A stretch of 64,000 nt of DNA, from assembly GCF_044324785.1 (NCBI RefSeq), contig NZ_CP172127.1; one strand, written 5' to 3'. The DNA is from Escherichia coli. Its GTDB lineage: Bacteria > Pseudomonadota > Gammaproteobacteria > Enterobacterales > Enterobacteriaceae. The translations under genes and the position numbers were made by a program. The notes beneath the pieces are model-generated. The model saw nothing but the letters and a program-made list of their open reading frames with translations, was not told where the DNA came from and made no database searches. Every line of letters starts with the position of its first letter. The first letter of the stretch is position 1. Shown here one piece after another: positions 2,443-40,133 of this stretch.

Positions 2443-3663
2443 GTGGTTGCTGAAAACCAGCCTGGGCACATTGATCAAATAAAGCAGACCAACGCGGGCG
2501 CGGTTTATCGCCTGATTGATCAGCTTGGTCCAGTCTCGCGTATCGATCTTTCCCGTCTGGCGCAACTGGCTCCTGCCAGTATCACCAAAATTGTCCGTGA
2601 GATGCTCGAAGCACACTTGGTGCAAGAGCTGGAAATCAAAGAAGCGGGGAACCGTGGCCGTCCGGCGGTGGGGCTGGTGGTTGAAACTGAAGCCTGGCAC
2701 TATCTTTCTCTGCGCATTAGTCGCGGGGAGATTTTCCTTGCTTTGCGCGATCTGAGCAGCAAACTGGTGGTGGAAGAGTCGCAGGAACTGGCGTTAAAAG
2801 ATGACTTGCCATTGCTGGATCGTATTATTTCCCATATCGATCAGTTTTTTATCCGCCATCAGAAAAAACTTGAGCGTCTGACTTCGATTGCCATTACCTT
2901 GCCGGGAATTATTGATACGGAAAATGGTATTGTACATCGCATGCCGTTCTACGAGGATGTAAAAGAGATGCCGCTCGGCGAGGCGCTGGAGCAGCATACC
3001 GGCGTACCGGTTTATATTCAGCATGATATCAGCGCATGGACGATGGCTGAGGCCTTGTTTGGTGCCTCACGCGGGGCGCGCGATGTGATTCAGGTGGTTA
3101 TCGATCACAACGTGGGGGCGGGCGTCATTACCGATGGTCATCTGCTACACGCAGGCAGCAGTAGCCTCGTGGAAATAGGTCACACGCAGGTCGACCCGTA
3201 TGGGAAACGCTGTTATTGCGGGAATCACGGCTGCCTCGAAACCATCGCCAGTGTGGACAGTATTCTTGAGCTGGCACAGCTGCGTCTTAATCAATCCATG
3301 AGCTCGATGTTACATGGACAGCCGTTAACCGTGGACTCATTGTGTCAGGCGGCATTGCGCGGCGATCTACTGGCAAAAGACATCATTACCGGGGTGGGCG
3401 CGCATGTCGGGCGCATTCTTGCCATCATGGTGAATTTATTTAACCCACAAAAAATACTGATTGGCTCACCGTTAAGTAAAGCGGCAGAAATCCTCTTCCC
3501 GGTCATCTCGGACAGCATCCGTCAGCAGGCCCTTCCTGCGTATAGTCAGCACATTAGCGTTGAGAGTACTCAGTTTTCTAACCAGGGCACGATGGCAGGC
3601 GCTGCGCTGGTAAAAGACGCGATGTATAACGGTTCTTTGTTGATTCGTCTGTTGCAGGGTTAA
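2443..3663 (+). CDS. mlc: ROK-family global repressor Mlc (DgsA)
   Basis: 406-aa ORF, probable GTG start, ROK family with Cys-rich zinc motif (CYCGNHGCLE). Confidence 0.9.
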   Translation: MVAENQPGHIDQIKQTNAGAVYRLIDQLGPVSRIDLSRLAQLAPASITKIVREMLEAHLVQELEIKEAGNRGRPAVGLVVETEAWHYLSLRISRGEIFLALRDLSSKLVVEESQELALKDDLPLLDRIISHIDQFFIRHQKKLERLTSIAITLPGIIDTENGIVHRMPFYEDVKEMPLGEALEQHTGVPVYIQHDISAWTMAEALFGASRGARDVIQVVIDHNVGAGVITDGHLLHAGSSSLVEIGHTQVDPYGKRCYCGNHGCLETIASVDSILELAQLRLNQSMSSMLHGQPLTVDSLCQAALRGDLLAKDIITGVGAHVGRILAIMVNLFNPQKILIGSPLSKAAEILFPVISDSIRQQALPAYSQHISVESTQFSNQGTMAGAALVKDAMYNGSLLIRLLQG

Positions 3664-10511: not shown

Positions 10512-12938
10512 TTATATTTTTTCGATCTCGACCAGATTAGTGTGCTGCGGGTTTCCCTTCGCCAGTGGTGAAGGGCGCAGAGTGGTTAGCGTATTCACAC
10601 AGCCGCCGTGGTCGATTTTATCGCCAGACATATTGGCCTCGTGCCAGGCTCCCTGACCCATAGCGCTAACTCCAGGAAGAATGCGTGGTGTCACTTTGGC
10701 TGGTAGCCGAACTTCGCCACGATGGTTAAACACCCGCACCATATCGCCGTTGGCAATCCCACGTTTCTGTGCATCTATAGGGTTGATCCACACTTCCTGA
10801 CGGCAGGCTGCCTTCAGGACATCAATGTTGCCGTAGGTCGAGTGAGTACGGGATTTGTAATGGAAACCAAACAGTTGCAGTGGGAAGGTACTACGTTCAG
10901 GGGAGTCCCAGCCTTCAAAGGTTGAGGCATAAACCGGCAGTGGGCTTATCACTTCATCTTTTTCCAGTTCCCAGGTACGGGCAATTTCCGCCAGCTTGCT
11001 GGAATAAATTTCAATCTTACCGGAAGGCGTTTTAAGTGGATTTGCCTCGGGGTCGTCACGAAATGCTTTGTAGGCGACAAAATGACCATTGGGATCTTTA
11101 CGCTTATAGATACCCATTTTTTTCAGTTCGTCGTAAGACGGTAACGCCGGATCTTTGGCAAGCATTTTGGCGTACAGATGTTGTAACCATTGTTCCTGCG
11201 TGCGACCTTCAGTGAACTTTTGATAGACGTCAGGTCCAAGACGTTTCGCGACTTCACTCAGGATCCAGTAAATCGGTTTGCGTTCGAATTTTTCGCTGGT
11301 GACAGGCTGGAGGAAAATGAGATATCCCATGTTACCGGTGTAGTCGTTAGGAATAATATCTTCCTGCTCAACGGTCATCAGGTCTGGCAGCAGAATGTCG
11401 GCATATTTTGCCGATGAGGTCATAAAGTTTTCGATGACCACAATCATTTCGCATTTCGATTCGTCCTGCAGAATTTCATGCGTTTTGTTGATGTCAGAAT
11501 GCTGATTAACCAGGGTATTTCCCGCGTAGTTCCAGATGAACTTAATGGGCACATCCAGTTTATCTTTGCCCCGGACGCCGTCGCGGATTGCCGTCATTTG
11601 CGGGCCATGATCGATAGCATCCGTCCAGCTGAAGCAGGAGATTGACGTTTTGACCGGATTATCAAGCACCGGCAGGCGTTCTATGGTAATGGTATAGGTC
11701 GATTCACGCGCGCCACTATTCCCGCCGCTGATGCCGACATTGCCCGTCAGAATAGGCAACATCGCAATAGCGCGTGCAGTCAGCTCGCCGTTTGCCTGGC
11801 GTTGCGGTCCCCAGCCCTGGCAGATATAAGCGGGTTTTGCTGTGCCAATTTCACGCGCCAGTTTGATGATACGGTCCACCGGGATACCGGTAATTTGCGA
11901 AGCCCACTGCGGCGTTTTCGCTGTTTTATCGTCACCTTCACCAAGAATATAGGCTTTATAGTGACCATTTTTTGGTGCATCTGCGGGTAAGGTTTTTTCG
12001 TCATAGCCGACGCAGTATTTATCGAGAAAAGGTTGATCAACGAGATTTTCGTTAATCAATACCCAGGCAATACCCGCAACCAGCGCGGCATCGGTGCCCG
12101 GGCGAATAGGAAGCCATTCGTCTTCACGACCGGCAGCCGTATCGGTATATCGCGGATCGATAACAATCATTTTTGCGTTCGATTTCTCGCGCGCTTTTTC
12201 AAGAAGATAAGTGATGCCACCGCCGCTCATGCGGGTTTCTGCCGGGTTGTTACCAAACATCACGACCAGCTTGCTGTTTTCAATATCCGTGGTGCTGTTG
12301 CCATCATTACTGCCGTAGGTGTAGGGCATGGCACAGGAAATTTGCGCGGTGCTGTAGGAGCCATACTGATTGAGTGAACCGCCGTAGCAGTTCATCAGGC
12401 GTTTGACCGCCGAGGCTGATGGTGAAGAGCGGGTCATATTGCCGCCAACAATCCCCGAAGAGTACTGAATATATACAGCCTCATTGCCATATTGTTCGAC
12501 GGTTTTTTTCAGGCTACTGGCGATAGTATCCAGGGCTTCATCCCAGCTAATCCGTTCGAATTTGCCTTCGCCGCGTTTGCCCACGCGTTTCATTGGGTAA
12601 TTCAAGCGATCGGGATGATTAATACGCCGACGGATGGAGCGACCGCGCAAACAGGCACGTACTTGATGATTGCCATACTCGTCGTTGCCGGTGTTGTCAG
12701 TTTCCACCCAGGTCACTTCATTATCTTTAACATGCAGACGAAGTGCACAGCGGCTACCACAGTTGACGGAACAGGCACCCCAGACCACTTTCTCGCTGGC
12801 CTGTTGTACCGCTGCCGCTGCACTGCGCAGGGTGAACGGTAAAGAAAAACCGCCTGCAGCCAGCGCCAGAGAACCTATCGCGGTAGATTTAACGAGTGTT
12901 CTGCGGCTGATGCCCACCATTTGTTCATTTTTGGACAT
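10512..12938 (-). CDS. ynfE: molybdopterin oxidoreductase catalytic subunit (putative selenate reductase, DmsA paralog)
   Basis: 808 aa, twin-arginine signal SRRTLVK, highly similar to the adjacent ynfF. Confidence 0.9.
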   Translation of the reverse strand: MSKNEQMVGISRRTLVKSTAIGSLALAAGGFSLPFTLRSAAAAVQQASEKVVWGACSVNCGSRCALRLHVKDNEVTWVETDNTGNDEYGNHQVRACLRGRSIRRRINHPDRLNYPMKRVGKRGEGKFERISWDEALDTIASSLKKTVEQYGNEAVYIQYSSGIVGGNMTRSSPSASAVKRLMNCYGGSLNQYGSYSTAQISCAMPYTYGSNDGNSTTDIENSKLVVMFGNNPAETRMSGGGITYLLEKAREKSNAKMIVIDPRYTDTAAGREDEWLPIRPGTDAALVAGIAWVLINENLVDQPFLDKYCVGYDEKTLPADAPKNGHYKAYILGEGDDKTAKTPQWASQITGIPVDRIIKLAREIGTAKPAYICQGWGPQRQANGELTARAIAMLPILTGNVGISGGNSGARESTYTITIERLPVLDNPVKTSISCFSWTDAIDHGPQMTAIRDGVRGKDKLDVPIKFIWNYAGNTLVNQHSDINKTHEILQDESKCEMIVVIENFMTSSAKYADILLPDLMTVEQEDIIPNDYTGNMGYLIFLQPVTSEKFERKPIYWILSEVAKRLGPDVYQKFTEGRTQEQWLQHLYAKMLAKDPALPSYDELKKMGIYKRKDPNGHFVAYKAFRDDPEANPLKTPSGKIEIYSSKLAEIARTWELEKDEVISPLPVYASTFEGWDSPERSTFPLQLFGFHYKSRTHSTYGNIDVLKAACRQEVWINPIDAQKRGIANGDMVRVFNHRGEVRLPAKVTPRILPGVSAMGQGAWHEANMSGDKIDHGGCVNTLTTLRPSPLAKGNPQHTNLVEIEKI

Positions 12939-23055: not shown

Positions 23056-23108
23056 GGGCGGCAGAGCAGTCACGGAGTAAAACTGATACCGCCAAACGTC
23101 ACCAGAAA
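23056..23108 (-). ncRNA. dicF: DicF small regulatory RNA
   Basis: Minus strand reads TTTCTGGTGACGTTTGGCGGTATCAGTTTTACTCCGTGACTGCTCTGCCGCCC followed by a T-run, matching recalled DicF; lies between ydfC and dicB as in K-12. Confidence 0.85.
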
Positions 23109-24865: not shown

Positions 24866-25370
24866 ACAGGCTCGTGAGGCTCTGGATGCCTGGATATGTC
24901 GACCAGGAATGACACAGGAGCAGGCGACGATATTAATCACTGAAGCATTCTGGGCTTTGAAAGAGCGCCCGAACATCGATGTTCAGCGTGTCACAGATGA
25001 AGGTGGCGCGGTTGATCAGCGAGCGCTTGGTGTTAATCGAGTGAAGATATTCGAACGCTGGAAGGCTATCGACACCAGGGATAAGCGTGAAAAGTTCACG
25101 GCGCTAGTGCCTGCGATTATGGAGGCTATCCGGATTAGTGATTTCAGGTTGTATCGTGAAATTACTGACGGAAAAAGCATCACGTGCATGATCGCCGGGT
25201 TAAACAAAGAATATGGCGATGTGGTGGAGTCCGGACTGCTTTTTGCTGATCCTGCCGTAGTGGATCGTGAAACTGACGAACTTATAGAAAAAGCAATTGC
25301 TTTCAAGCTTGCGTATCGACAGCAATACCAACAAAAAGCTGGATGGAATTATGAGCCTTCTTTTTGCTGA
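24849..25370 (+). CDS. hypothetical phage early protein (cII/YdaT position)
   Basis: 173-aa ORF overlapping the dicC stop; function not recognisable from sequence. Confidence 0.45.
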   Translation: MKITPEQAREALDAWICRPGMTQEQATILITEAFWALKERPNIDVQRVTDEGGAVDQRALGVNRVKIFERWKAIDTRDKREKFTALVPAIMEAIRISDFRLYREITDGKSITCMIAGLNKEYGDVVESGLLFADPAVVDRETDELIEKAIAFKLAYRQQYQQKAGWNYEPSFC

Positions 25371-26316
25371 ACGCCCACTGGTTATAAACACGCAGCTGGC
25401 AATGAAAATTGGCTTAAACGAAGCCATTGTTTTGCAACAACTGCACTACTGGTTGAGAGATACCAACTCCGGCATGGAATGTGATGGTGTTCGCTGGATT
25501 TATAACACAACGGAACAATGGCTGGAACAGTTCCCATTCTGGTCAGAGTCAACGTTAAAGCGCGCGTTTGCAAGTCTGAAAACGCTGGGGCTTTTGCGTT
25601 GTGAAAAGCTCAATAAATCAAAGCGCGATATGACCAATTTCTACACGATCAACTATGGGAGCGAGCTTTTAGATGGTGGCAAATTGAGCGAATCCATCGG
25701 TTCAAAATGCGCCGCTCCATCAGGTCAAAATGACACGATGGAAGAGGTCAAAATGAAACGCTCCATTGATTCAAAACGACCCAATGTCATCGGGTCAAAA
25801 TGGCCTGATGATCTTACAGAGAATACAACAGAGATTACTACAGAGAATAAAAACACTTTTCGTCCGGAAGCTTCGCAACCGGACCCGCAGACGACTGAAC
25901 AGGATTTTTTAACCCGGAACTCCGACGCGGTTGTGTTTAGTGCGAAAAAACGCCAGTGGGGTAGCAGGGAGGATTTGGCGTGTGCGCAGTGGATCTGGGG
26001 GCGGATCGTGGGTCTCTACGAACAGGCAGCCAGTGATGATGGCGAGATCATGCGACCAAAAGAGCCTAACTGGACTGCCTGGGCCAATGACGTGCGCACA
26101 ATGCGGATGCTGGATGGCAGAAGCCACAGACAAATTTGCGAAATGTTTGGTCGGGTTCAGCGAGATCCATTCTGGGTAAAAAACATCATGAGCCCGTCAA
26201 AGCTCCGCGAAAAATGGGACGAACTGGTCATCCGCCTGGGACGTTCACCTGTACAGCGTTGTGTTAATCATATTTCTGAACCGGATACAGAAATTCCGCC
26301 TGGTTTCAGAGGATAA
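25297..26316 (+). CDS. phage replication initiation/organizer protein (O-like)
   Basis: N-terminal winged-helix replisome-organizer-like region, acidic linker, conserved C-terminal domain; true start probably MSLLFAERP at 25351. Confidence 0.6.
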   Translation: MLSSLRIDSNTNKKLDGIMSLLFAERPLVINTQLAMKIGLNEAIVLQQLHYWLRDTNSGMECDGVRWIYNTTEQWLEQFPFWSESTLKRAFASLKTLGLLRCEKLNKSKRDMTNFYTINYGSELLDGGKLSESIGSKCAAPSGQNDTMEEVKMKRSIDSKRPNVIGSKWPDDLTENTTEITTENKNTFRPEASQPDPQTTEQDFLTRNSDAVVFSAKKRQWGSREDLACAQWIWGRIVGLYEQAASDDGEIMRPKEPNWTAWANDVRTMRMLDGRSHRQICEMFGRVQRDPFWVKNIMSPSKLREKWDELVIRLGRSPVQRCVNHISEPDTEIPPGFRG

Positions 26317-26356
26317 GTGTTGATTTCAGGTCATGAGGTAATTTTAAGGGGGACTT

Positions 26357-26779
26357 GTGGCAAAAGTTTTTACACAAGAAGAGCGGGAAAAAATTAAATG
26401 GCAGGTGGTGGAACTCGTGCGCCAGAGCGGCCGTGAGACGTTACGGCAACTGGAAGCTAAAACAGGTGCGACTAGATATCTGATGAGCGTTCTTGCCAGA
26501 GAGCTGGTAGCCAGTGGCGATGTATACAACTCCGGCTACGGGTTATTCCCCTCTGAACAGGCGCGTAAGGACTGGCAAAACGCCCGCAAAAAACTCTCGA
26601 GGGCAAAGGTGAAGAAACCTGCTGTGGTTGATCCGGACCTTATCTGGTCATCACCTGACGGAGAAATACGTCGCTACGACAGTCGCCTAAACATAATCTG
26701 TCGCGAGTGCCGGAAGAGCGAAGTTATGCAGCGCATACTGGCTTTCTATCAGGGTAATTTTCAGGACGTGGCGCAGTGA
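26357..26779 (+). CDS. hypothetical phage protein
   Basis: 140-aa ORF with good coding character, no recognisable motif. Confidence 0.45.
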   Translation: MAKVFTQEEREKIKWQVVELVRQSGRETLRQLEAKTGATRYLMSVLARELVASGDVYNSGYGLFPSEQARKDWQNARKKLSRAKVKKPAVVDPDLIWSSPDGEIRRYDSRLNIICRECRKSEVMQRILAFYQGNFQDVAQ

Positions 26780-27210
26780 GTGCACCGGCAACCATTCTTG
26801 ATATGTGCTGTGGCAGCCGCATGTTCTGGTTCGATAAGTCTGACGAACGGGCGATATTTAGCGATATCAGAAAAGAAGGATACACATTACGCAATGGGAG
26901 ACGCTTGATTATCAGCCCTGACATTATCGCAGATTTTCGTGCATTATCATTTGCAGACGCATCTTTTTCGATGGTTGTATTAGACCCTCCGCATCTTGAG
27001 CGTGTTGGTGATAACGCCTGGATGGGAAAGAAATATGGACGGCTGAATAAAGATGCCTGGCGTGATGATTTGCGACAGAGATTTAAAGAAGCTTTTCGGG
27101 TGTTGAGGCCGCACGGCGTTCTGATTTTTTAATGGAATGAAACGCAAATACCGGTAAGCCAGATTCTGGCACTGACAGATAGAAAGCCTGTTATCTGTCA
27201 ACGAACAGGG
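26776..27210 (+). pseudogene. truncated phage DNA methyltransferase (amino-MTase with DPPH motif)
   Basis: VLDPPHL catalytic motif; stop inside a T-run at 27130-27132, similarity continues about 26 codons in-frame after it. Confidence 0.6.
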
Positions 27211-27554
27211 AAAAAACGATAAAACCCACTGGATTATTTTTATGAAAGAGGCATCCAGTGAGTAGATTCGTAAGGTTACAGATACGTATATCTGAATAAT
27301 TAAATTCAGTTCTGTAAATAAAACTTAATCCTTAACCGGATGGATTTCTGCACCCTCAGAACATCAGGAGGCCGCCCGAAAGGGCGGTAGTGAAATGCGA
27401 AAGTTCAAAATTATTATTGAAACGGGAATAGCTGGTGGAGATTTTGAGGATGTATTCGAAGTGGACGATGACGCAACACCTGATGAAATTCATGACGGAG
27501 CATAAGAAATTTTCTTTAACTACTGCAATTACTCATACCACGAAATAAAAGACG

Positions 27555-28030
27555 ATGAGGAAGAACAAAGTGGCTGATTTTTGTTCAGCTAAATATAACA
27601 TCAGTTTTGAAGAGCGGGATGAACTATTAATGGACTATGGTGAGTTACGCGGTGGAAGTGCTGCTGATGTCGAATCCTAGCGTGATGACTATGAAGCGGG
27701 AAAAACTCCGGTCGAAGCATATTGTGAGGAGTGGGGCGATGAATGAGCGAGATTAATTATCAGGAAGGGCATGAAACGGCGGGGCAAGCAAAACCAGTGA
27801 CATGGCGATATCGCTACGTGAAAAAAGGCGTTACGGACTTTCAGGGGAAGTAGTGGTCTGGTGACTGGAAATATGTACCGAAAAAAGAGGATTGTAACGA
27901 CAGGCCGAACTATCAAATTCAGGCCTTATTCACTGCCTCACCAGTCCCGGTTACATCAGAAGAATTGGTTAAAGCTGTGCACTTTTATGAACAACTAAAA
28001 CGCGAAAATCCACCAACATCCGGCAACTAG
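27555..28030 (+). pseudogene. two translationally coupled small ORFs, each interrupted by one in-frame TAG
   Basis: Frame-0 ORF 27555-27746 has TAG at 27678; overlapping frame-2 ORF 27743-28030 (MSEINYQEGHE...) has TAG at 27851. Confidence 0.35.
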
Positions 28031-28284
28031 ATTAATGGGTTAACTATGTCGGTTAAACGACCAGCCAACTGAAAAAGCGGAAACCTGATTACAGGTTGCC
28101 AGATAAGGCAATGAGCTACCTGGCGCGGAACGGACTGATAAGTATGGGGAATGTTTTACGATGAACCTTTAGACTAAAGAGTTTGTAACGCTATGTAAGT
28201 GATTTTTTCTGGTTTAGATATTTATATGTCCGGCCAAATTGAGGTGTGTTTAAATGTAATTGCACATTGATTGTAGGAGGAATA

Positions 28285-28464
28285 ATGAAAAACGCATTGC
28301 AGTTTTTGTTTGTTGCGTTCTGGTTGTTCGCATCATGTATGCCCATCATCTTCACAGCAAGGTATATGGAAAAAGTTGATGTTTTGATATTAATATTTGG
28401 ATATATAAATGCCCTTTTTTTAGGGGTGTTCATGGCGGTCATGTGCATTGAATACTGGCGGTAA
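28285..28464 (+). CDS. small two-helix membrane protein, unknown function
   Basis: 59 aa from MKNALQFLFVAFWLFASCMPIIF, preceded by AGGAGG Shine-Dalgarno. Confidence 0.45.
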   Translation: MKNALQFLFVAFWLFASCMPIIFTARYMEKVDVLILIFGYINALFLGVFMAVMCIEYWR

Positions 28465-29755
28465 ATACAGCGAACTCCATTGGTTTAGTTGGATATTTAC
28501 TGTGCTGGACAAAAACGGTTTGCGGGGAAATCTTAGTTAAGTAGAATGACTGCGGGTGCTTGAGGCTATCTGCCTCGGGCACGAACACCAACGGCAGGTA
28601 GAGAAAAGCCCCAGTTAACATTACGCGTCCTGCAAGACGCTTAACATTAATCTGAGGCCAATTTCATGCCAGACACATGTAGGTTAGCCTCTTACGTGCC
28701 GAAAGGCAAGGAGAAGCAGGCTATTGTTAACACCAAGCTGTAATGTCCCCTTTGAACCATTCTAAAATGTCCCCAGACAATTCTCTGGGGGATTTTTCAT
28801 GACCAAAGAAACTGTTACGATGAGTCATAAGGAACTCCACCGACTTCAGATTATTCAGGAGTCAATTAATCGACATATTACTCAGGAACAAGCTGCGGCA
28901 CGCATTGGCATTTCTATTCGGCAGGTTAAACGTCTGGTGCAACGGTATAGAAATGAAGGGCCTTCTGGTCTGGTTTCCCACCGACGTGGAAAGCGTCCTA
29001 ATAATTCCTTTTCTACTGAATTCAGAGCAACAGTAATTTTACTCCTCAAAGGCCGTTACGCTGATTTTGGACCTACGTTTGCGTGCGAAAAATTGCGCGA
29101 GATACACGGTTTATCTTTATCCGTTGAAACTCTCAGAAAGTGGATGATAGAAGAGGGGGGTATGGCGTGAACGCCGTCGTAAAATTGCCCGTATATATCA
29201 ACGCCGCATGCGACGACCATCTTACGGTGAACTGATCCAGATTGATGGCTCACCTCATGACTGGTTTGAAAATCGAGGCCCCAGATGTACACTGATCGTT
29301 TTCATTGATGATGCCACCAGTGCGTTGATGGCGTTGCGTTTTGTGCCTGCTGAAACAACCCGGGCTTACATGGAAACCCTCCGGGGTTACCTTAATGATC
29401 ATGGCGTACCGCTCGCTCTCTACTCTGATAGACACAGTATATTCAGGGTAAATAACCCAGAGCGGGAAGGTGAGCTGACCCAGTTCACTCGTGCGATAAA
29501 GACACTGGGCATCGAGCCAATCCATGCCAACAGCCCGCAGGCAAAAGGGCGGGTAGAGCGCGCCAATCAGACACTACAGGACAGGCTGGTCAAAGAAATG
29601 CGGCTTCAGAATATCAGTGATATTGAAACAGCAAATGCATGGTTGCCGACCTTTATTGAAGCCTATAACAACCGGTTCGCTACGTCGCCTCGTACTACTG
29701 ATAATGCTCATCTTGATGTGCACCATTCTGAAGAGGAACTGGGTTATATCTTCAG

Positions 29756-29764
29756 CCTACAGGC
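29756..29764. repeat. 9-bp target site duplication (CCTACAGGC), left copy
   Basis: Identical 9-mer immediately flanks both ends of the IS. Confidence 0.8.
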
Positions 29765-30821
29765 GGCTTTGTTGAATAAATCAGATTTCGGGTAAGTCTC
29801 CCCCGTAGCGGGTTGTGTTTTCAGGCAATACGCACGCTTTCAGGCATACCTGCTTTCGTCATTTTGTTCAGCGCTCGTACCAGGGCCATAGCCTCCGCAA
29901 CCTGACCATCGTAGTCACGCAGCGTCAGTGAACCCCCGAACAGCTGTTTTACCCGGTACATCGCCGTTTCCGCTATCGAGCGACGGTTGTAATCTGTTGT
30001 CCATTTCCACCGCGCATTACTCCCGGTCATTCGCTGATTAGCCACTGCACGGTTACGGTCTGCATATTCACCGGGCCAGTAACCCGCACCTTTTCGGGGA
30101 GGGATAAGCGCGCTGATTTTCTTACGCCGCAGTTCATCGTGACATAGCCGGGTATCGTAAGCGCCATCGGCGGCGGCTGACCTGATTTTCCGGTGGGTTT
30201 GCCGGATTAACCCGGGGAAGGCCTCTGAGTCCGTAACGTTGTTCAGCGACAGGTCAGCGCAGATGATTTCATGTGTTTTACTGTCAACGGCGAGATGCAG
30301 CTTACGCCAGATACGGCGGCGTTCCTGGCCATGCTTTTTGACTTTCCACTCGCCTTCACCGAAGACCTTCAGCCCGGTGGAATCAATTACCAGGTGTGCG
30401 ATTTCACCCCGGGTGGGCGTTTTGAAACTGACATTAACCGACTTTGCCCGCCTGCTGACACAGCTGTAATCCGGGCAGCGTAGCGGAACGTTCATCAGAG
30501 AAAAAATGGAATCAATAAAGCCCTGCGCAGCCCGCAGGGTCAGCCTGAATACGCGTTTAATGACCAGCACAGTAGTGATGGCAAGGTCAGAATAGCGCTG
30601 AGGTCTGCCTCGTGAAGAAGGTGTTGCTGACTCATACCAGGCCTGAATAGCTTCATCATCCAGCCAGAAAGTTATGGAGCCACGGTTGATGAGGGCTTTA
30701 TTGTAGGTGGGCCAGTTGGTGATTTTGAACTTTTGCTTTGCCACGGAACGGTCTGCGTTGTCGGGAAGATACGTGATCTGATCCTTCAACTCAGCAAAAG
30801 TTCGATTTATTCAACAAAGCC
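29765..30821 (-). mobile_element. IS903-group insertion sequence (IS5 family), 1057 bp
   Basis: Perfect 18-bp terminal inverted repeats GGCTTTGTTGAATAAATC, 1057-bp length and 9-bp duplication typical of IS903/IS102. Confidence 0.9.
29821..30744 (-). CDS. IS903-type DDE transposase
   Basis: ORF inside the IS with DDE residues and YREK-like signature; probable GTG start giving 307 aa. Confidence 0.85.
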   Translation of the reverse strand: MAKQKFKITNWPTYNKALINRGSITFWLDDEAIQAWYESATPSSRGRPQRYSDLAITTVLVIKRVFRLTLRAAQGFIDSIFSLMNVPLRCPDYSCVSRRAKSVNVSFKTPTRGEIAHLVIDSTGLKVFGEGEWKVKKHGQERRRIWRKLHLAVDSKTHEIICADLSLNNVTDSEAFPGLIRQTHRKIRSAAADGAYDTRLCHDELRRKKISALIPPRKGAGYWPGEYADRNRAVANQRMTGSNARWKWTTDYNRRSIAETAMYRVKQLFGGSLTLRDYDGQVAEAMALVRALNKMTKAGMPESVRIA

Positions 30822-30830
30822 CCTACAGGC
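30822..30830. repeat. 9-bp target site duplication (CCTACAGGC), right copy
   Basis: Direct repeat of 29756-29764. Confidence 0.8.
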
Positions 30831-31642
30831 GAAGCGCGTTCTGTCTAAAAATCTCACTTTCCAGTACAAAAGCAGTGCGTTTCAGGTACGCAGTGAGGGC
30901 CGGGGATATCGACTTAGGCATTCGGTTGTTACTGTATGCGAGAACTTTGACGGTGAAATTAACGTTCTGTATGACGGGAAAGCGCTGGGCTGGGAAAAGT
31001 ATGTTGATGGCCCGGAGCCTATACCACTGGATGATGAAAAGAGTGTCCATGAACGAGTGGATAATGCCCGTATTGATTTACGCTCAAAATACTATGTTAA
31101 ACCTAAAGCTGACCATCCCTGGCTTACGCGCCGAACGCAAAGTCATCAGCAAGTTAAGCCCCCGAAGTTACCTAAAAAGAAGCCTGATCCCGATAAAAAA
31201 GATTGAAACCAAGATCGATTCGGTTGAGTGCATATCCATTCATAGGGTAGATTCTTAAGTCGCGTTTCTGGTGTTCATTTTCGGGTGGTTTGTTACTTGT
31301 TTTACCGGGGATATGCCAGAAACGCGCTGAGTCAGTCTGGGCGGTGCGCGTAATGAGGCGTTATGGTAAATAGCCTATGCTAATGTCCGCTAAGAGCAAG
31401 AAGCGGAAGTTGGCAGTTTTGTGGACTGTCCCCACAAATGTGACTACAGAAATAGTTGCAATTCATAATTGATCATGGGTTGTCAGTTAAACTCGTGGCG
31501 ATTTAAATAGACTAATTGGGAGTGCGTCCATTACTTATATCTTGTAATGTTAACTATCAGAAATGATACAAAGATAATATGTCTTTAAAGAAAAGGCTGA
31601 TGGCGAAAAGTGGCCCGATGAGGGCCACAATACGGCTGTCAC

Positions 31643-31975
31643 TTAGACGTAAATATCAATGGTGCCAGCGGTATTTGTATCGTCTTTTTTCTCTTCTTTT
31701 TTATCAGGCTGAACTGTCGCGTCTTTATTCTTTTTCTCTGCCTGCTGCCTTAACAACTGCTCCAGTTGAGCCCTGAGGCTTTCAATTTGCTTCTGTACCA
31801 ATGCAGCCATTTCTTTTTTCTGCTGTGTCGTCATCCCCTCTTCCGATGAGATTTTCCCAAGCTTTTCAGTCAGCACCTGAATTTGTCTTGTGATTTTGGC
31901 TATTTCTGATGTTCCTTCCGGGGCGGAGTTGTTTGAAATAACGGTTGAGGTATTTCCCTGAATTGTGACAGACAT
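31643..31975 (-). CDS. flxA: FlxA (sigma-28-dependent prophage protein)
   Basis: 110 aa MSVTIQGNTSTVISNNSAPEG... matches recalled FlxA. Confidence 0.9.
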   Translation of the reverse strand: MSVTIQGNTSTVISNNSAPEGTSEIAKITRQIQVLTEKLGKISSEEGMTTQQKKEMAALVQKQIESLRAQLEQLLRQQAEKKNKDATVQPDKKEEKKDDTNTAGTIDIYV

Positions 31976-31999
31976 AGATTTCTCCTTTTAAAAAAGCAC

Positions 32000-32026
32000 T
32001 ATCGGCATGCACAAAAAAATCTTTAA
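32000..32026 (-). promoter_or_regulatory. sigma-28 (FliA) promoter for flxA
   Basis: Minus strand TAAAGATT-N11-GCCGATAG against consensus TAAAGTTT-N11-GCCGATAA, about 25 bp upstream of the flxA start. Confidence 0.65.
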
Positions 32027-32177
32027 TCGTATTTCTTGTGTCATTAATTGTTTGATGTTCAGATTGTTTTCCTCGCGGGCTGGCGCGCCTCAGAAAGTAA
32101 AGCTTGTTGACAGGGGTAAACGTTCGGCAATAATTTTCTGCCGCATGCGGGTGTTGCATAAAACGTGCTACGTTCCT

Positions 32178-32483
32178 TTATCGACAGGTCAGGTCACCGC
32201 TCACCCGCCGACGAGAAAGCAACACTGACATGCTAAAGCAAAAAATAGATGAATAAGTTGAGTTGTGCATATGTAGCCTGACCGTCACAAAGTATATGGT
32301 GTCTGTACCAGTAAGATGATGGCCGGACTCTTTAAAAACGAGCTGACCTGCACAATACAGGATGGACTTAGCAATGGCTGCTCCTGGCACAAAGCGGACA
32401 GTGATCACCGTTCTTACGACTACTTTCTGACTTCCTTCGTGACTTGCCCTAAGCATGTTGTAGTGCGATACTTGTAATGACAT
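32178..32483 (-). CDS. ydfV: hypothetical protein at the YdfV position
   Basis: 101-aa ORF between flxA and relB. Confidence 0.55.
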   Translation of the reverse strand: MSLQVSHYNMLRASHEGSQKVVVRTVITVRFVPGAAIAKSILYCAGQLVFKESGHHLTGTDTIYFVTVRLHMHNSTYSSIFCFSMSVLLSRRRVSGDLTCR

Positions 32484-32507
32484 TTGTAATTACAAGAGGT
32501 GTAAGAC

Positions 32508-32747
32508 ATGGGTAGCATTAACCTGCGTATTGACGATGAACTTAAAGCGCGTTCTTACGCCGCGCTTGAAAAAATGGGTGTAACTCCTTCTGAAGCGCTT
32601 CGTCTCATGCTCGAGTATATCGCTGACAATGAACGCTTGCCGTTCAAACAGACACTCCTGAGTGATGAAGATGCTGAACTTGTGGAGATAGTGAAAGAAC
32701 GGCTTCGTAATCCTAAGCCAGTACGTGTGACGCTGGATGAACTCTGA
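32508..32747 (+). CDS. relB: RelB antitoxin
   Basis: 79 aa MGSINLRIDDELKARSYAALEKMGVTPSEALR... matches recalled RelB. Confidence 0.9.
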   Translation: MGSINLRIDDELKARSYAALEKMGVTPSEALRLMLEYIADNERLPFKQTLLSDEDAELVEIVKERLRNPKPVRVTLDEL

Positions 32748-33034
32748 TGGCGTATTTTCTGGATTTTGACGAGCGGGCACTAAAGGAATGGCGAAAGCTG
32801 GGCTCGACGGTACGTGAACAGTTGAAAAAGAAGCTGGTTGAAGTACTTGAGTCACCCCGGATTGAAGCAAACAAGCTCCGTGGTATGCCTGATTGTTACA
32901 AGATTAAGCTCCGGTCTTCAGGCTATCGCCTTGTATACCAGGTTATAGACGAGAAAGTTGTCGTTTTCGTGATTTCTGTTGGGAAAAGAGAACGCTCGGA
33001 AGTATATAGCGAGGCGGTCAAACGCATTCTCTGA
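32747..33034 (+). CDS. relE: RelE mRNA-interferase toxin
   Basis: 95 aa MAYFLDFDERALKEWRKLGSTVREQLKKKL..., start overlaps the relB stop. Confidence 0.9.
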   Translation: MAYFLDFDERALKEWRKLGSTVREQLKKKLVEVLESPRIEANKLRGMPDCYKIKLRSSGYRLVYQVIDEKVVVFVISVGKRERSEVYSEAVKRIL

Positions 33035-33105
33035 ACCAAAGCATGACATCTCTGTTTCGCACCGAAGGTGACACTTCTGCTTTGCGTTGACAGGAGAAGC
33101 AGGCT

Positions 33106-33261
33106 ATGAAGCAGCAAAAGGCGATGTTAATCGCCCTGATCGTCATCTGTTTAACCGTCATAGTGACGGCACTGGTAACGAGGAAAGACCTCTGCGAGGT
33201 ACGAATCCGAACCGGCCAGACGGAGGTCGCTGTCTTCACAGCTTACGAACCTGAGGAGTAA
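33106..33261 (+). CDS. hokD: Hok-family membrane toxin HokD (RelF)
   Basis: Manual translation MKQQKAMLIALIVICLTVIVTALVTRKDLCEVRIRTGQTEVAVFTAYEPEE, 51 aa, below the ORF-track cutoff. Confidence 0.85.
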   Translation: MKQQKAMLIALIVICLTVIVTALVTRKDLCEVRIRTGQTEVAVFTAYEPEE

Positions 33262-33477
33262 GAGACCCGGCGGGGGAGAAATCCCTCGCCACCTCTGATG
33301 TGGCAGGCATCCTCAACGCACCCGCACTTAACCCGCTTCGGCGGGTTTTTGTTTTTATTTTCAACGCGTTTGAAGTTCTGGACGGTGCCGGAATAGAATC
33401 AAAAATACTTAAGTAGCGCGCAGGGATAAGAGGGATGGTCCCTTAAAGGGGAGAGCTAATTATCCGGAAGGATTCTG

Positions 33478-33729
33478 ATGATGAACATCGAAGAACTGCG
33501 TAAAATTTTTTGTGAAGATGGCCTCTATGCTGTGTGCGTTGAAAATGGAAATCTTGTTAGTCATTACCGCATTATGTGTTTGCGAAAGAATGGGGCTGCG
33601 TTAATTAATTTTGTGGATGCTCGGGTCACGGACGGATTTATCTTGCGCGAAGGTGAGTTTGTCACTTCATTACAGGCATTGAAAGAGATCGGAATAAAAG
33701 CTGGCTTTTCTGCTTTTTCAGGAGAATAA
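33478..33729 (+). CDS. rem: Rem protein (function unknown)
   Basis: 83-aa ORF after relBE-hokD as in Qin. Confidence 0.7.
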   Translation: MMNIEELRKIFCEDGLYAVCVENGNLVSHYRIMCLRKNGAALINFVDARVTDGFILREGEFVTSLQALKEIGIKAGFSAFSGE

Positions 33730-33795
33730 ACTCATCTACAATCTTGCGCGGGGCTGAACTCCCGCTGAGTAACACCGTGCCACCGGAGAAAACCG

Positions 33796-34074
33796 ATGGC
33801 ACGCAACGCAAAATATTACAATTCTGATAATTCGCCCGTTCTTGCCTGCACGCACGGGCGGTATTCTCACGCATTCAAGTCTGAATGGTTCCAGCACCCT
33901 CCATGCACTGCAGAACAGGCCGAATGGCTGATTCATTCTTACCGCAGGCGCGGGTTCGAGGTTAAGAAAGCTCTCAGTCTCGACTATCGGCACTGGATAA
34001 TCTCTGTCAGGCTGCCTTATTCCGAACGCCCACCACGTGCGTCCCGCACTTTCCAGCAACGGATCTGGAGGTAA
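33796..34074 (+). CDS. hypothetical ORF, possibly the frameshifted 5-prime part of ydfU
   Basis: 92-aa ORF overlapping the next ORF start by 38 nt in another frame. Confidence 0.35.
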   Translation: MARNAKYYNSDNSPVLACTHGRYSHAFKSEWFQHPPCTAEQAEWLIHSYRRRGFEVKKALSLDYRHWIISVRLPYSERPPRASRTFQQRIWR

Positions 34075-35125
34075 CGTGCGGGTATTACTTAGACCTGTTC
34101 TGGTGCCTGAGCTTGGGCTGGTGGTCCTTAAGCCGGGCCGTGAATCCATACAGATATTTCATAATCCTCGAGTGCTGGTGGAACCGGAACCAAAAAGCAT
34201 GCGTAATCTGCCATCCGGAGTCGTTCCTGCCGTTCGCCAGCCGCTGGCGGAAGACAAAACATTGCTGCCGTTTTTTAGTAACGAACGGGTGATTCGTGCT
34301 GCTGGCGGCGTTGGCGCATTGTCCGACTGGCTATTACGTCATGTTACATCCTGCCAGTGGCCTAATGGCGATTACCATCACACTGAAACAGTCATTCACC
34401 GTTATGGTACCGGCGCAATGGTGTTGTGCTGGCACTGCGACAACCAACTGCGTGACCAGACATCGGAATCACTGGAGCTGCTTGCTCAACAAAATCTGAC
34501 AGCATGGGTGATTGACGTCATCCGTCACGCAATAAGCGGTACGCAGGAGCGGGAATTATCTTTGGCTGAATTATCCTGGTGGGCGGTCTGCAATCAGGTG
34601 GTGGATGCACTACCTGAGGCTGTATCGCGTCGTTCGCTGGGATTACCAGCGGAAAAAATCTGCTCGGTGTACCGCGAAAGCGACATCGTACCGGGAGAGC
34701 AGACCGCCACCAGCATATTGAAACAACGCACAAAAAATCTTGCACCGTTGCCTTACGCCCACCAGCAACAAAAATCACCACAGGAAAAGACGGTGGTAAG
34801 CATCACCGTTGATCCAGAGTCTCCGGAATCTTTCATGAAGCTGCCTAAACGTCGCCGCTGGGTTAAGGAGAAATACACACGTTGGGTTAAGACACAGCCG
34901 TGTGCTTGCTGCGGTATGCCAGCCGACGATCCGCATCATCTGATTGGTCACGGGCAGGGCGGAATGGGAACAAAAGCACATGATCTCTTTGTGTTGCCTT
35001 TGTGCAGAAAGCATCACAACGAGCTGCATACGGATACAGTGGCATTTGAAGATAAGTATGGCTCCCAACTGGAGCTGATATTTCGTTTTATCGATCGCGC
35101 GCTGGCAATTGGCGTACTGGCGTAA
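34037..35125 (+). CDS. ydfU: DUF968/HNH-like phage protein YdfU
   Basis: 362 aa with C-terminal Cys/His cluster (CACCGMPADDPHHL...CRKHHNELH). Confidence 0.65.
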   Translation: MRPALSSNGSGGNVRVLLRPVLVPELGLVVLKPGRESIQIFHNPRVLVEPEPKSMRNLPSGVVPAVRQPLAEDKTLLPFFSNERVIRAAGGVGALSDWLLRHVTSCQWPNGDYHHTETVIHRYGTGAMVLCWHCDNQLRDQTSESLELLAQQNLTAWVIDVIRHAISGTQERELSLAELSWWAVCNQVVDALPEAVSRRSLGLPAEKICSVYRESDIVPGEQTATSILKQRTKNLAPLPYAHQQQKSPQEKTVVSITVDPESPESFMKLPKRRRWVKEKYTRWVKTQPCACCGMPADDPHHLIGHGQGGMGTKAHDLFVLPLCRKHHNELHTDTVAFEDKYGSQLELIFRFIDRALAIGVLA

Positions 35126-35138
35126 GTGGAGAACGAGC

Positions 35139-35891
35139 ATGAACCTTGAAGCCTTACCAAAATATTACTCCCCAAAATCTCCAAAATTGAGCGATGACGC
35201 TCCAGCGACAGGCACCGGTTGTTTAACAATTACGGATGTAATGGCAGCGCAGGGGATGGTGCAGTCGAAAGCACCACTTGGGTTGGCCTTATTTCTGGCA
35301 AAAGTTGGTGTTCAGGACCCCCAGTTTGCGATTGAAGGCCTGCTAAATTACGCGATGGCACTGGATAACCCGACATTGAACAAATTGAGTGAAGAAATCC
35401 GGTTACAGATTATTCCTTACCTCGTGAGTTTTGCCTTTGCTGATTACTCCAGGTCTGCGGCAAGTAAGGCTCGCTGTGAGCATTGTTCAGGTACGGGATT
35501 TTATAATGTATTGCGCGAAGTGGTGAAACACTACAGACGCGGGGAATCTGTAATCAAGGAAGAATGGGTGAAGGAACTATGTCAGCATTGCCATGGTAAG
35601 GGCGAAGCCAGCACAGCGTGCAGAGGGTGTAAGGGTAAAGGGATTGTTCTGGATGAAAAAAGAACCCGGTTTCATGGCGTACCGGTATATAAGATTTGTG
35701 GGCGTTGTAATGGAAACCGGTTTAGTCGTTTACCGACCACGCTGGCACGACGTCATGTCCAGAAGCTGGTACCAGACCTGACCGATTATCAGTGGTATAA
35801 GGGGTATGCGGACGTCATTGGTAAACTGGTAACAAAGTGCTGGCAGGAAGAAGCATACGCGGAAGCGCAATTGAGGAAGGTGACAAGATAA
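35139..35891 (+). CDS. quuQ: late-gene antiterminator Q-like protein
   Basis: About 250 aa with zinc-binding Cys clusters (CEHCSGTG, CQHCHGKG, CRGCKGKG, CGRCNG) upstream of the lysis genes. Confidence 0.8.
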   Translation: MNLEALPKYYSPKSPKLSDDAPATGTGCLTITDVMAAQGMVQSKAPLGLALFLAKVGVQDPQFAIEGLLNYAMALDNPTLNKLSEEIRLQIIPYLVSFAFADYSRSAASKARCEHCSGTGFYNVLREVVKHYRRGESVIKEEWVKELCQHCHGKGEASTACRGCKGKGIVLDEKRTRFHGVPVYKICGRCNGNRFSRLPTTLARRHVQKLVPDLTDYQWYKGYADVIGKLVTKCWQEEAYAEAQLRKVTR

Positions 35892-36312
35892 ATGATTTTT
35901 GCTGAAGATGGCGACATGATGTTTGCATTTTTCAAAAAATATGGATAAAATTTTTTCAACGATGGGCTTTGTATACCCGACGTTAAGAAAAAGTAGAAAA
36001 CCCGCTGATGAGCGGGTTTTGTGCTTTAAATGGGGCAATGGTAATGTTGAATCTCATCCCGGGACTCATGTCTGTTAACTTATTATTTAGCTGGTGACTT
36101 GGTTATTTGCCTGATGTTTAAAATGTTTTCTTCCAGTACAATGTCCCTAAACACAATGAGTCTGCTTATTATATTATTAGCAGAGCTATTACGGCCAAAG
36201 TACAGCATAAGCTTTTAAAGCCAATCAACCAGTCATCAAGACAGACGGGGTTATTCATAAAAACTCTCCATGTGTGATCCGATGGGGCCTGAAATTAAAG
36301 CTTTAATATAGC

Positions 36313-36525: not shown

Positions 36526-36825
36526 AAAAATTCCTTAATACTGATAACTTGGCGCACTATACACACGTTCCTGAAGAAAGCTATAGTTTTTTGATGGGGT
36601 TGAAGATGGCTGGATGTCTAAAATAAACATTGCTTCATATGTTCAACTATGCGTTAATGATTGCGTCGGTTTGAAGAACAGACGATATACGAAGTAGTTT
36701 ACTAAAGCAGTTCTCATTTCAGGTGTTATTCACTTATTCCTTCTTTGAGTCTCTCCAATTAAGTACGAAGTCGTTTCTGTTATGCAAACCATTTATGCCG
36801 AAAGGCTCAAGTTAAGGAATGTAGA

Positions 36826-37041
36826 ATGTCAAATAAAATGACTGGTTTAGTAAAATGGTTTAACGCTGATAAAGGTTTCGGCTTTATTTCTCCTGTTGAT
36901 GGTAGTAAAGATGTGTTTGTGCATTTTTCTGCGATTCAGAATGATAATTATCGAACCTTATTTGAAGGTCAAAAGGTTACCTTCTCTATAGAGAGTGGTG
37001 CTAAAGGTCCTGCAGCAGCAAATGTCATCATTACTGATTAA
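36826..37041 (+). CDS. cspB: cold-shock protein CspB
   Basis: 71 aa [23 protein letters not shown] with RNP motifs. Confidence 0.9.
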
Positions 37042-37322
37042 AATTCATCGCTCGTCTGTATACGATAACGAAGAAGGCTGATGCCTGAGTAGAGATACGG
37101 ACAGAGTAGTGAATATTGGATCTCTTTAATAAAAAGTAAGGAGGTCCAATACATGAAACAATGGCTAGCATATTTGGCAAAATCTTAATCAGGAAAAGTA
37201 TGCTAACCATTGTGGTGAAGTGCAGGTTTGCTGCATGAATAGTTTTACAGCAGAAGCTAACTGCTGGCATGGCAAAACAAAGTGCGTAAGTGGATGACTC
37301 CCACAAAAAGCACCACAATCTC

Positions 37323-39350: not shown

Positions 39351-39713
39351 GGTAATATTAAATCGGAACATTTACATCGCGGAATGTAAAATTTAAATAA
39401 AAAGGACTCTTCCATGAGCCAAAATTCCTGAAATCTTAAGGGTAAGATAAAAGGTCTTAATCAGAATGACACGTTATTATTAATAAATAAAGCTATTCTT
39501 TCATTGCTGTGTTTTTCTTTACAAAAGTAATCCTTGCTATGGGTGGTTAATCATGCGTTAATGGTGTTCTGGTTTGTTACAAATTTATCTGAAGCAGTCA
39601 TTGTTATAATTTTATTATTTGTACCTCTTGAGATTTCCTTGTTGGTTTTTCTCTCTGATATTTTTTTTCGGACCATTCTGCCCAAGGGCTAATTTCTTCA
39701 AAAGGTAATAATT

Positions 39714-39926
39714 ATGTCTAACAAAATGACTGGTTTAGTGAAATGGTTTAACCCTGAAAAAGGTTTTGGTTTCATCACGCCGAAAGATGGCAGCAAAGAT
39801 GTGTTTGTCCATTTCTCAGCAATTCAGAGCAACGATTTCAAAACATTAACTGAGAATCAGGAAGTTGAATTTGGTATTGAGAACGGACCTAAAGGTCCTG
39901 CCGCTGTTCATGTAGTGGCGCTTTGA
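39714..39926 (+). CDS. cspI: cold-shock protein CspI
   Basis: 70 aa [23 protein letters not shown]. Confidence 0.9.
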
Positions 39927-40133
39927 GGTAGACAATATTACAAACCATATTCACTTTAGATGCCCGTGTTGTCATGGTTCCCAGTATAGAACATCATCTT
40001 TTGATGTTTCTGACATGAATCCTTTCGGGGCAAAATGTATCTTTTGTAAATCAATGATGATTACATTTGATAATATTTCACAATACTTAAATGCCAGCCG
40101 TCTGTCGTTGGATTTAAAAAAGTGAAAATGAAG

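Follow-up and report, generated by a model that had tools for sequence, protein, structure and literature searches.

A relB-relE-hokD cassette in a Qin-type prophage as the probable junction between an IS1202-family transposon and a hok gene

We analyzed a stretch of 64,000 nucleotides (nt) of Escherichia coli DNA (contig NZ_CP172127.1; the whole stretch is called the window below), which carries at positions 32508–33261 a cassette of three small genes for the RelB antitoxin, the RelE toxin and the Hok-family toxin HokD. The cassette is the relBEF operon of the E. coli prophage Qin, which has been known since 1985–86 and is not new. We consider it probable, at roughly 85%, that relBEF represents the junction of a hok-targeting transposon of the IS1202 family with its target, and that hokD is transcribed from the relB promoter. 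The cassette is in this sense the right end of a transposon joined to the gene that it entered, rather than a designed three-toxin operon. As far as can be told, this anatomy of the junction, with relBE as the right-end module and hok as the target, appears to be undescribed.

The cassette itself comprises the following genes:

32508–32747, plus strand: relB, an open reading frame (ORF) of 79 amino acids (aa)
32747–33034, plus strand: relE, an ORF of 95 aa
33106–33261, plus strand: hokD (relF), an intact ORF for a 51-aa Hok-family toxin

The ATG of relE lies on the stop codon of relB, forming an ATGA overlap (32744–32750). The RelB product is recovered by the Pfam RelB model (1e-32) and by the NCBIfam RelB/DinJ equivalog PRK11235 (133 bits, cut-off 96), the RelE product by Pfam ParE_toxin/RelE (2.2e-13) and NCBIfam TIGR02385 RelE_StbE (54.7 bits, cut-off 27.9), and HokD by Pfam HOK_GEF (1e-23; 82.9 bits, cut-off 22) with coverage of profile positions 1–42 of 42; the Pfam matches of all three genes exceed the curated cut-offs. 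The NCBIfam Hok models match HokD under their own cut-offs, and membership in the Hok family is therefore based on the Pfam match together with identity to the annotated HokD. The RelE protein is identical to that of K-12 (WP_000323025.1). The cassette thus combines a RelB/DinJ antitoxin gene directly upstream of and overlapping the toxin gene, a toxin of the RelE/ParE fold, and a Hok-domain peptide of about 50 aa from the Hok/Gef family, whose members have a transmembrane helix at the N terminus. The region 32100–33500 is 100% identical to many E. coli chromosomes annotated as ydfV-relB-relE-hokD-rem, and at least 80% of it is found in 1156 of 5426 complete E. coli genomes. In the annotation of the identical region the cassette sits between replication-type genes and the Q antiterminator (ydfT). 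The original prediction had named the same three genes at these coordinates and placed them between the replication and Q regions, and both statements are confirmed, the first by the ORFs, the Pfam matches and the identity to the annotated region, and the second by the annotation.

The split hok/sok locus and the inserted transposon

The key to the origin of the cassette lies 4.4 kb upstream of hokD, where the original prediction had overlooked a complete hok leader/sok region within the window. The two halves of the locus, and the repeats that border them, are:

28554–28724, plus strand: orphaned 5' half of hok, a leader with tac (28554–28565), the Sok-target and the mok start region, reaching to the Shine-Dalgarno and the 'AT' of the ATG
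28709–28724: left copy of the target-site duplication (TSD), AGGAGAAGCAGGCTAT, from the hok Shine-Dalgarno through the 'AT' of the ATG
33092–33107: right copy of the duplication, AGGAGAAGCAGGCTAT, which gives hokD its Shine-Dalgarno and the first two bases of its ATG
33262–33357, plus strand: hok 3' untranslated region (UTR), with the fbi element (33311–33323/6) and an intrinsic terminator (33330–33347) plus a T run

In a scan of the whole window the Rfam model RF01794 gave a full match (model positions 1–157) at 28554–28725, with 99.8 bits against a gathering threshold of 59, ending at the junction. This model represents the sense hok leader ending in the hok AUG, and in the alignment the window reads AUU at those last positions. 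The sok gene lies antisense inside the leader. Candidate hexamers of the hok promoter were placed by eye at 28520–28525 (TTGCGG) and 28542–28547 (TAGAAT), and those of the sok promoter on the minus strand at 28709–28704 and 28686–28681; a sigma-70 consensus scan of the orphan leader flagged no promoter, and these hexamers are candidates only.

An intact allele of the locus is found in strain KN13-4, where the leader is followed by hokD with an identical protein (WP_000813254.1), the same 3' UTR and then orf-DUF968-Q. The left half in the window is collinear with this allele up to ...AAGGAGAAGCAGGCTAT (junction ...GGCTAT|) and then diverges, and the relE-hokD region regains collinearity only from |AGGAGAAGCAGGCTATG on. 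The homology to intact hok loci starts at 33092, 14 nt ahead of the hokD ATG. Among the complete E. coli genomes all hokD-type loci without relBE begin matching at this same position (query position 333), and the breakpoint is constant against thousands of genomes. A repeat search of the window recovered 28709–28724 and 33092–33107 as an exact 16-nt direct repeat with a spacing of 4383. In the predicted fold of the intact KN13-4 mRNA nt 1–12 pair with nt 375–387, which is the published tac/fbi fold-back (PMC9841398), and joining 28554–28724 to 33108–33352 in silico restores the same pairing. On these comparisons the leader remnant and hokD are the two halves of one prophage hok/sok locus: the hok promoter, tac, ucb, the Sok-target, the mok-start leader and the sok gene are stranded upstream, and the hok ORF still has its Shine-Dalgarno, its 3' UTR including fbi, and its terminator.

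In some Qin-type prophages, such as that of E. coli E2865 (L001, 5330–5380), the hok leader to the left of the transposon is cut down to about 25–30 nt, with unrelated sequence upstream; here the orphan sok half has lost further DNA.

The DNA between the two halves has the organization of a transposon:

28725–33091, plus strand: ISEsa1 (IS1202-family) transposon of 4367 bp, about 3301 bp without a secondary insertion sequence (IS), bounded by the 16-bp repeat
28725–28774, plus strand: left inverted repeat and inner copy of its site; begins TGTTAACACCAAGCTGTAATGTCCCC, with the inner site 24 nt inward
28799–31206, plus strand: ISEsa1 transposase gene, inactivated twice, by a +1 frameshift (extra G at 29155) and by an IS903-like insertion
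29765–30821, minus strand: IS903-like (IS5-family) secondary element of 1057 bp, with arms at 29765–29797 and 30789–30821
31412–32380, minus strand: variable cargo, with flxA (31643–31975; Pfam FlxA match) and most of ydfV (32178–32483)
32381–33091, plus strand: conserved right-end module, with the relB promoter/operator region, relB, relE and the right inverted repeat
33042–33091, minus strand: right inverted repeat, with its terminal site at 33067–33091/2 and inner site at 33042–33060

The terminal inverted repeats match at 19 of 26 positions, a score that no other site on either strand of the window reaches, and the inner repeats match at 15 of 19 (left, at +24) and 13 of 19 (right, at +25). 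The right-repeat sites nearly fill the 57 nt that separate the relE stop from the duplication, and the right module as a whole includes 127 nt ahead of relB. A TGT opens the left end; the right end shows the corresponding ACA only when the first A of the repeated 16-mer is assigned to the element. An intact homolog of the transposase (446 aa; L008, 527–1867) matches the NCBIfam equivalog ISNCY_2 with 464.7 bits (cut-off 250) and the Pfam HTH_28/29/32 and rve_3 domains. The element thus shows the features of the IS1202 family, namely a transposase with helix-turn-helix (HTH) and DDE domains, imperfect ends with inner sites, and a duplication of characteristic length. With the frameshift at 29155 and the IS903-like insertion, the copy in the window is immobile on its own. 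The secondary element encodes a 322-aa transposase on the minus strand (29821–30789) and has a 9-bp target duplication, seen as a 9–10-nt overlap of the flanking alignments; a first assignment of it to IS5 was dropped in view of its terminal repeats (GGCTTTGTTGAATAAATC...) and its length of 1057 bp.

The modular nature of the unit is apparent from a 12,842-bp variant on the Phytobacter plasmid NZ_AP018757.1, which carries ncr/chr (nickel- and chromate-resistance) genes and has an exact AGGAGAAGTCAGCTAT repeat on both flanks. It shares with the window only 28725–31411, containing the transposase, and 32381–33091, the right module (98.6% identical). The flxA/ydfV stretch is regarded as variable cargo because it is absent from this variant.

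These observations can be accommodated by a simple series of events. In an ancestral lambdoid prophage a normal hok/sok locus would have lain between the replication genes and Q, and an ISEsa1 transposon (IS1202 family, with a TnsB-like DDE transposase) would have inserted at the Shine-Dalgarno/ATG of hok. The transposon would have consisted of the left repeat, the transposase, variable cargo, the relB promoter with relB and relE, and the right repeat, and its insertion would have duplicated 16 bp comprising the Shine-Dalgarno and the 'AT' of the start codon.

Recurrence of the unit at hok-family genes

On enterobacterial plasmids, at least six other hok-family genes carry the same unit at their Shine-Dalgarno/ATG; its orientation is nearly always the same, and it has 16–17-bp duplications of its own. 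In a Salmonella IncI plasmid the unit lies within a pndA-type hok locus, between two copies of ATGGAGGGGCTATGAT, and in an Enterobacter IncF plasmid within an R1-type hok, between two copies of AGGAGAAGAAGGCCAT. The intact unit of the Salmonella plasmid NZ_CP030003.1 (68352–71651) and that of the window, after removal of the secondary IS, are 99.85% identical (5 differences in 3301 nt). The duplication is 16 bp long in the window and on three plasmids, and 17 bp in two further copies (L079, L088). Units flanked by duplications measure 2260, 3273–3308, ~4238, ~4600, 4655 and 12,842 bp, and wherever the duplicated target recurs downstream it is preceded by the same right end.

A scan of a genome collection recovered the right end in Enterobacter, Kluyvera, Klebsiella michiganensis, Citrobacter portucalensis and an E. 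coli-like contig binned as Collinsella, with a 100% identical RelE upstream of it in all five of these other enterobacterial genomes. A 22-nt match to the right-end pattern in a Pseudomonadales metagenome-assembled genome (L013) has no relE upstream and was treated as chance or unrelated. The right module was recovered from 784 plasmid records; its identity is at least 99% in 655 of these, and 617 are conjugative. By genus the records are distributed over Klebsiella (254), Enterobacter (249), Escherichia (76), Citrobacter (72) and Salmonella (55). In five of eight sampled plasmids the right repeat is followed directly by AGGAG...ATG and a Hok ORF; three different Hok proteins are represented, among them the IncHI2 type. 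A neighboring hok is likewise seen for a 91%-diverged lineage of the element. No examined copy has a disrupted hok ORF; with insertions this recent, such conservation does not prove selection.

In IMG/VR the right end was recovered 46 times and the left end 41 times, for the most part as the Qin type. In metagenomes hok leaders, always in the sense orientation, make up 36 of the 44 informative left flanks; three of the remaining eight have an AGGAG-type target (one of them a tandem copy) and five are unrelated. When 94 left ends were pooled they fell into 17 flank clusters, of which ten are hok leaders; the other seven comprise two with an AGGAG-type target and different upstream sequence, one tandem copy and four unrelated flanks. 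The targeting of hok is hence a strong preference and not an absolute rule. Taken together, the sequence comparisons indicate that the relBE-hok arrangement is the repeated product of target-specific transposition onto hok-family genes of conjugative plasmids.

These data bear on a more general proposal, namely that relBE is the fixed right-end module of a mis-delimited IS1202-family transposon of at least 3.3 kb that homes to the start of hok. We would place an even bet on this proposal being both correct and unpublished; the literature searched, from which Ramisetty & Santhosh 2016 and Pedersen & Gerdes 1999 fell outside the scope, contained no paper linking ISEsa1 or IS1202 with hok. The homing element would insert in one orientation, with a 16–17-bp duplication, into plasmid- and prophage-borne type I toxin genes of the hok family, at their Shine-Dalgarno/start codon, and the hok leader would be the recognized determinant. 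If this is true, each insertion disarms the RNA-controlled addiction system of a replicon, installs the protein-controlled system of the transposon, and puts Hok under the relB promoter.

Several additional configurations were encountered at these sites. On Klebsiella-type plasmids an end of the IS481-family element ISKpn28 (TGTATGGGTCCACCAC...) lies directly after the hok AGGAG (L122, 1112–1511; left flanks L087, L094, L095 and L115), and the hok ribosome-binding site (RBS) thus harbors a second kind of IS. The flank variant AGGAGnTGTATGGGTCC had been considered as part of an unknown ORF; this was rejected, as it is the ISKpn28 end at the hok Shine-Dalgarno. Flanks of this type show the AGGAGnTGTATGGGTCC form on both sides of the element, the matching left and right copies coming from different contigs. 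These flanks would fit a 17-bp duplication counted from the leader, and with it recognition of the upstream leader and not of the hok ORF. In one case (L118, ~11690–11755) two tandem copies share one target copy, in the order right repeat-AGGAGAAAAAGGCTAT-left repeat. In Citrobacter portucalensis (L017, 8763–8810) the right end abuts an inverted hok leader.

Control of hokD and competing explanations

At the junction with hokD, relBE points outward and no terminator precedes the end of the transposon; likewise, a consensus scan found no terminator-like site in the relE-hokD gap, and the sole such site in 32100–33800 is the one at 33330–33347, past hokD. A single full-length relBEF mRNA has been seen with relB, relE and relF probes and is lost on deletion of the relB promoter (Kasari et al. 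2013, PMC3598666). The same study reports that relBEF has no toxin-inducible internal promoter, that its mRNA is induced by amino-acid starvation and by other toxins, and that the relF part accumulates after cleavage by mRNA-cleaving toxins. Bech 1985 and Gotfredsen & Gerdes 1998 are cited in the literature for the co-transcription of relF/hokD with relBE, and these together with Gerdes 1986 for co-transcription and RelB autoregulation; the 2013 study also covers RelB-RelE autorepression, the Lon-labile antitoxin and ribosome-dependent mRNA cleavage for K-12 genes identical to those of the window. The view of the original prediction that the three genes form one operon is borne out by this published mRNA and by the position of the terminator. 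Its suggestion that hokD is expressed by coupling to relBE holds for transcription; the coupling cannot be translational, because the relE stop lies 71 nt upstream of the hokD ATG and hokD retains its own AGGAG Shine-Dalgarno, 9 nt from the ATG, supplied by the duplication.

The published northern blots show hokD as the third gene of the relBEF mRNA, with hok's own terminator as its end, and hokD transcription would come under RelB/RelE autorepression, rising when RelB is degraded or when other toxins act. HokD synthesis would then be gated by this autorepression and not by an RNA antitoxin. Any translation of HokD would have to begin at its own Shine-Dalgarno without mok coupling, and would probably be inefficient. 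Folding models point weakly the same way: the predicted cost of unfolding the RBS is 11.0 kcal/mol for hokD in the relBEF mRNA, 8.4–8.5 kcal/mol for relB and relE, and 14.1 kcal/mol in the native hok mRNA, differences that are small and depend on model and context.

The hallmarks of type I control are lacking at hokD. There is no cis-encoded Sok overlapping the leader of the same transcript; no mok frame is translationally coupled to hok, as the mok start region is on the orphan half; and a tac/fbi fold-back within one mRNA is precluded, with fbi (33311–33323) and tac (28554–28565) on separate transcripts. Overexpressing the HokD coding sequence is reported to be toxic to cells (bioRxiv 10.1101/2025.08.07.668861). 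Codon 47 of hokD (TAC, Tyr; 33244–33246) falls within a UACG motif (33244–33247) in a predicted loop, CUUACGAAC; such a context for TadA A-to-I recoding of Tyr to Cys is reported for hokB and mentioned for hokC/D/E in the same preprint.

The most serious competitor of the functional part of our explanation, which leaves the origin of the cassette untouched, is that hokD is a silent passenger, transcribed with relBE and essentially never translated, with relBE as the module and hokD as a stable untranslated 3' tail. We rate this somewhat below an even chance. It draws support from the requirement of mok translation for native hok translation (PMC9841398; bioRxiv 10.1101/2025.08.07.668861), with the mok start on the orphan half, from the higher predicted unfolding cost of the hokD RBS compared with those of relB and relE, from the tolerance of cells to strong relBEF induction with accumulation of the relF RNA fragment (PMC3598666), and from the Tyr-to-Cys A-to-I edit that several Hok proteins reportedly require to be fully toxic (bioRxiv 10.1101/2025.08.07.668861). 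Against it stand the canonical AGGAG retained ahead of the ATG, the loss of the tac/fbi fold-back lock along with a predicted unfolding cost below that of the native mRNA, and, within the limit on selection given above, the intact ORF in all copies.

An alternative for the origin, which we hold to be improbable, is that relBE is not an integral module and that a 1.6-kb ISEsa1 once mobilized neighboring DNA through a chance surrogate right end, in the manner of ISEcp1. This would agree with the ISfinder definition of ISEsa1, in which the element has 15/22 inverted repeats and is 1609 bp long, a length that coincides with the point where the cargo variants diverge (~31411). Harmer, Pong & Hall 2023 (PMC10132070) list the same size and repeats and saw no duplication in several examples. 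However, no duplication-flanked unit of ~1.6 kb was found among more than 90 copies; right ends just past the transposase stop (~31262–31277) or at the ISfinder length (~31400) were also ruled out as no duplication follows them. The relE-proximal end, moreover, is common to variants with different cargo and to the 91%-diverged lineage, and has the same two-site architecture as the left end. This suggests, from the compared copies, that the true right end of ISEsa1 lies after relE, and 'no TSD detected' for the 1609-bp ISEsa1 would be explained by a right end placed about 1.7 kb too early.

We think it very unlikely that hokD is still under an RNA antitoxin, whether its source is a cryptic antisense promoter nearby or, acting in trans, the orphan sok at 28.6 kb or another sok. 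The orphan sok region is intact, and E. coli genomes have several hok/sok loci (a median of two hok-type places per genome). However, the 16-nt duplication is all that the relBEF mRNA has in common with the leader, and it lies outside the Sok-complementary region as placed by eye, which leaves the orphan Sok unable to regulate hokD. Close to hokD, the Rfam sok/hok-leader model has no match in 32000–33900 even at E<=10, and no minus-strand promoter-like site was found in 32100–33800 by a sigma-70 consensus scan, which is insensitive and also left the relB promoter unflagged; these results support the original prediction that no Sok adjoins hokD. A one-off illegitimate recombination or deletion that fused relBE to hokD is hardly credible: it fits K-12 taken alone, where a deletion (25129–31021 missing) has removed the element's left end together with the hok leader and where Pedersen & Gerdes 1999 are cited for a 'genetic rearrangement' (PMC7232551), but not the exact 16-bp duplication at both ends, the inverted repeats with inner sites, or the same unit in the same register at the six or more different hok genes, each with a different duplication sequence.

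Some points weigh against the interpretation favored here, in which relBEF is a transposon-target junction with hokD read from the relB promoter. The transposase in the window is dead, and the case for transposition of the unit is made by its 99.85%-identical copies at different hok targets in different genera, which point to it indirectly. The length of the duplication is ambiguous, at 16–17 bp, or 15–16 bp when the terminal A of ...GTTGACA is counted with the element. A non-hok insertion of a 3300-bp unit in IMG/VR has only a 7-bp repeat (ACGCCTT), and five of the metagenome left flanks are unrelated to hok. Raw counts overstate independence, since a single Qin insertion is the ancestor of many sampled copies; it is the distinct hok targets that count as independent events. 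The absence of an antisense RNA at hokD is read from the DNA, and the claim on HokD translation is weak given the nature of the unfolding differences.

Other signals around hokD were recorded. A perfect outward-facing TTGACA (33086–33091, plus strand) stands at the right end of the transposon just before the hokD Shine-Dalgarno; no -10 hexamer was seen 16–18 nt from it, and the promoter scan raised no flag there. A sub-threshold Rfam match to isrK (33270–33351, plus strand; 25 bits, gathering threshold 50, E = 0.008) covers two hairpins and the terminator, and is probably a mere structural resemblance of the hok 3' UTR. The other weak Rfam matches at E<=10 near hokD (rsmX and others) were, like isrK, judged to be hairpins of this 3' UTR.

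Comparison with known systems

The K-12 Qin relBEF has the same genes in the same order, and window 31022–36000 is 99.86% identical to K-12 MG1655 within 'cryptic prophage Qin'. K-12 has lost window 25129–31021, with the replication genes, the hok leader/sok, the left end of the transposon and most of the transposase; what remains as K-12 'ydfW' (b1567; L004, NC_000913.3 1647174–1647323; window 31057–31206) is the C-terminal 49 aa of the ISEsa1 transposase. The origin is readable in the window because, unlike in K-12, both transposon ends are kept, and hokD could be described in K-12 only as a 'genetic rearrangement' because the leader/sok, the left repeat and most of the transposase are lost there. 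Inactivation of hokD by such a 'genetic rearrangement' is ascribed to Pedersen & Gerdes 1999 where that paper is cited (PMC7232551), and Ramisetty and co-workers described a plasmid-acquired relBE that integrated into hokD (PMC6379469). The junction offers a concrete mechanism for the 'major rearrangement' that makes hokD the odd one out among the hok genes of K-12.

With intact hok/sok loci the window shares the toxin family, the 3' UTR with fbi, and the terminator, and its locus has the same prophage position as the intact KN13-4 allele. Unlike in these loci, the toxin ORF is separated from its promoter, tac/ucb, Sok target, mok start and sok, and control by antisense RNA and 3' processing appears to be replaced by read-through from the promoter of a type II toxin-antitoxin system. 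In the IS-inactivated chromosomal hok loci of E. coli (Pedersen & Gerdes 1999, through citations) a mobile element has likewise struck and the toxin ORF has been spared; in the citing account (PMC7232551) IS elements lie near the ORF and hokD is set apart as a 'rearrangement'. The element of the window differs from these in its precise register, its own toxin-antitoxin pair, and its recurrence at many hok genes.

Within the IS1202 family, the element shares with the ISAjo2 group, which inserts at dif/pdif sites (PMC10132070), the ISNCY_2 family of HTH and DDE transposases. With IS1202-family and Tn7 TnsB-type ends it has in common imperfect repeats of ~26 bp, an inner second site and a TGT terminus, and with the family at large a duplication of 16–17 bp (family lengths 5, 16–17 and 27–28 bp) and orientation- and site-specific insertion. 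Unlike in the ISAjo2 group, the target is the translation-initiation region of hok and not a Xer site, and in contrast to the IS1202 literature the mobile unit measures 3.3 kb or more and combines variable cargo with relBE as its fixed right-end module. Tn3-family transposons reportedly carry toxin-antitoxin pairs as part of the transposition module (Lima-Mendez et al. 2020). The likeness lies in a type II toxin-antitoxin pair that is a conserved component of the transposon and not accidental cargo; unlike in Tn3, the pair of the window is at the very end, reads outward and takes over the toxin gene of the target, and the transposase family is different.

The IS1202 family, known for homing to dif, would thereby gain a second specific target, the translation-initiation region of a toxin gene that marks plasmids and prophages, and the junction would represent a natural route by which a type I toxin passes from antisense-RNA control to control by a type II antitoxin. 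As the right-end module is present in 784 plasmid records, mostly conjugative, this is relevant to the remodeling of plasmid addiction systems in clinical Enterobacterales. In practice, deletions of relBE can have polar effects on hokD.

A relBE pair that is 87.6% identical occurs in Pantoea dispersa (NZ_CP118630.1, ~322200–322750; L127) between malT and a phosphodiesterase gene, with neither a transposon end nor hok, and may be a relative of the source of the module. Elsewhere in the window, Rfam matches at gathering level were obtained for the small RNA DicF (23056–23107, minus strand) and for two cspA-type thermoregulator 5' UTRs (36665–37057 and 39568–39953, both plus strand), which are probably the cspB and cspI leaders of a Qin-type prophage.

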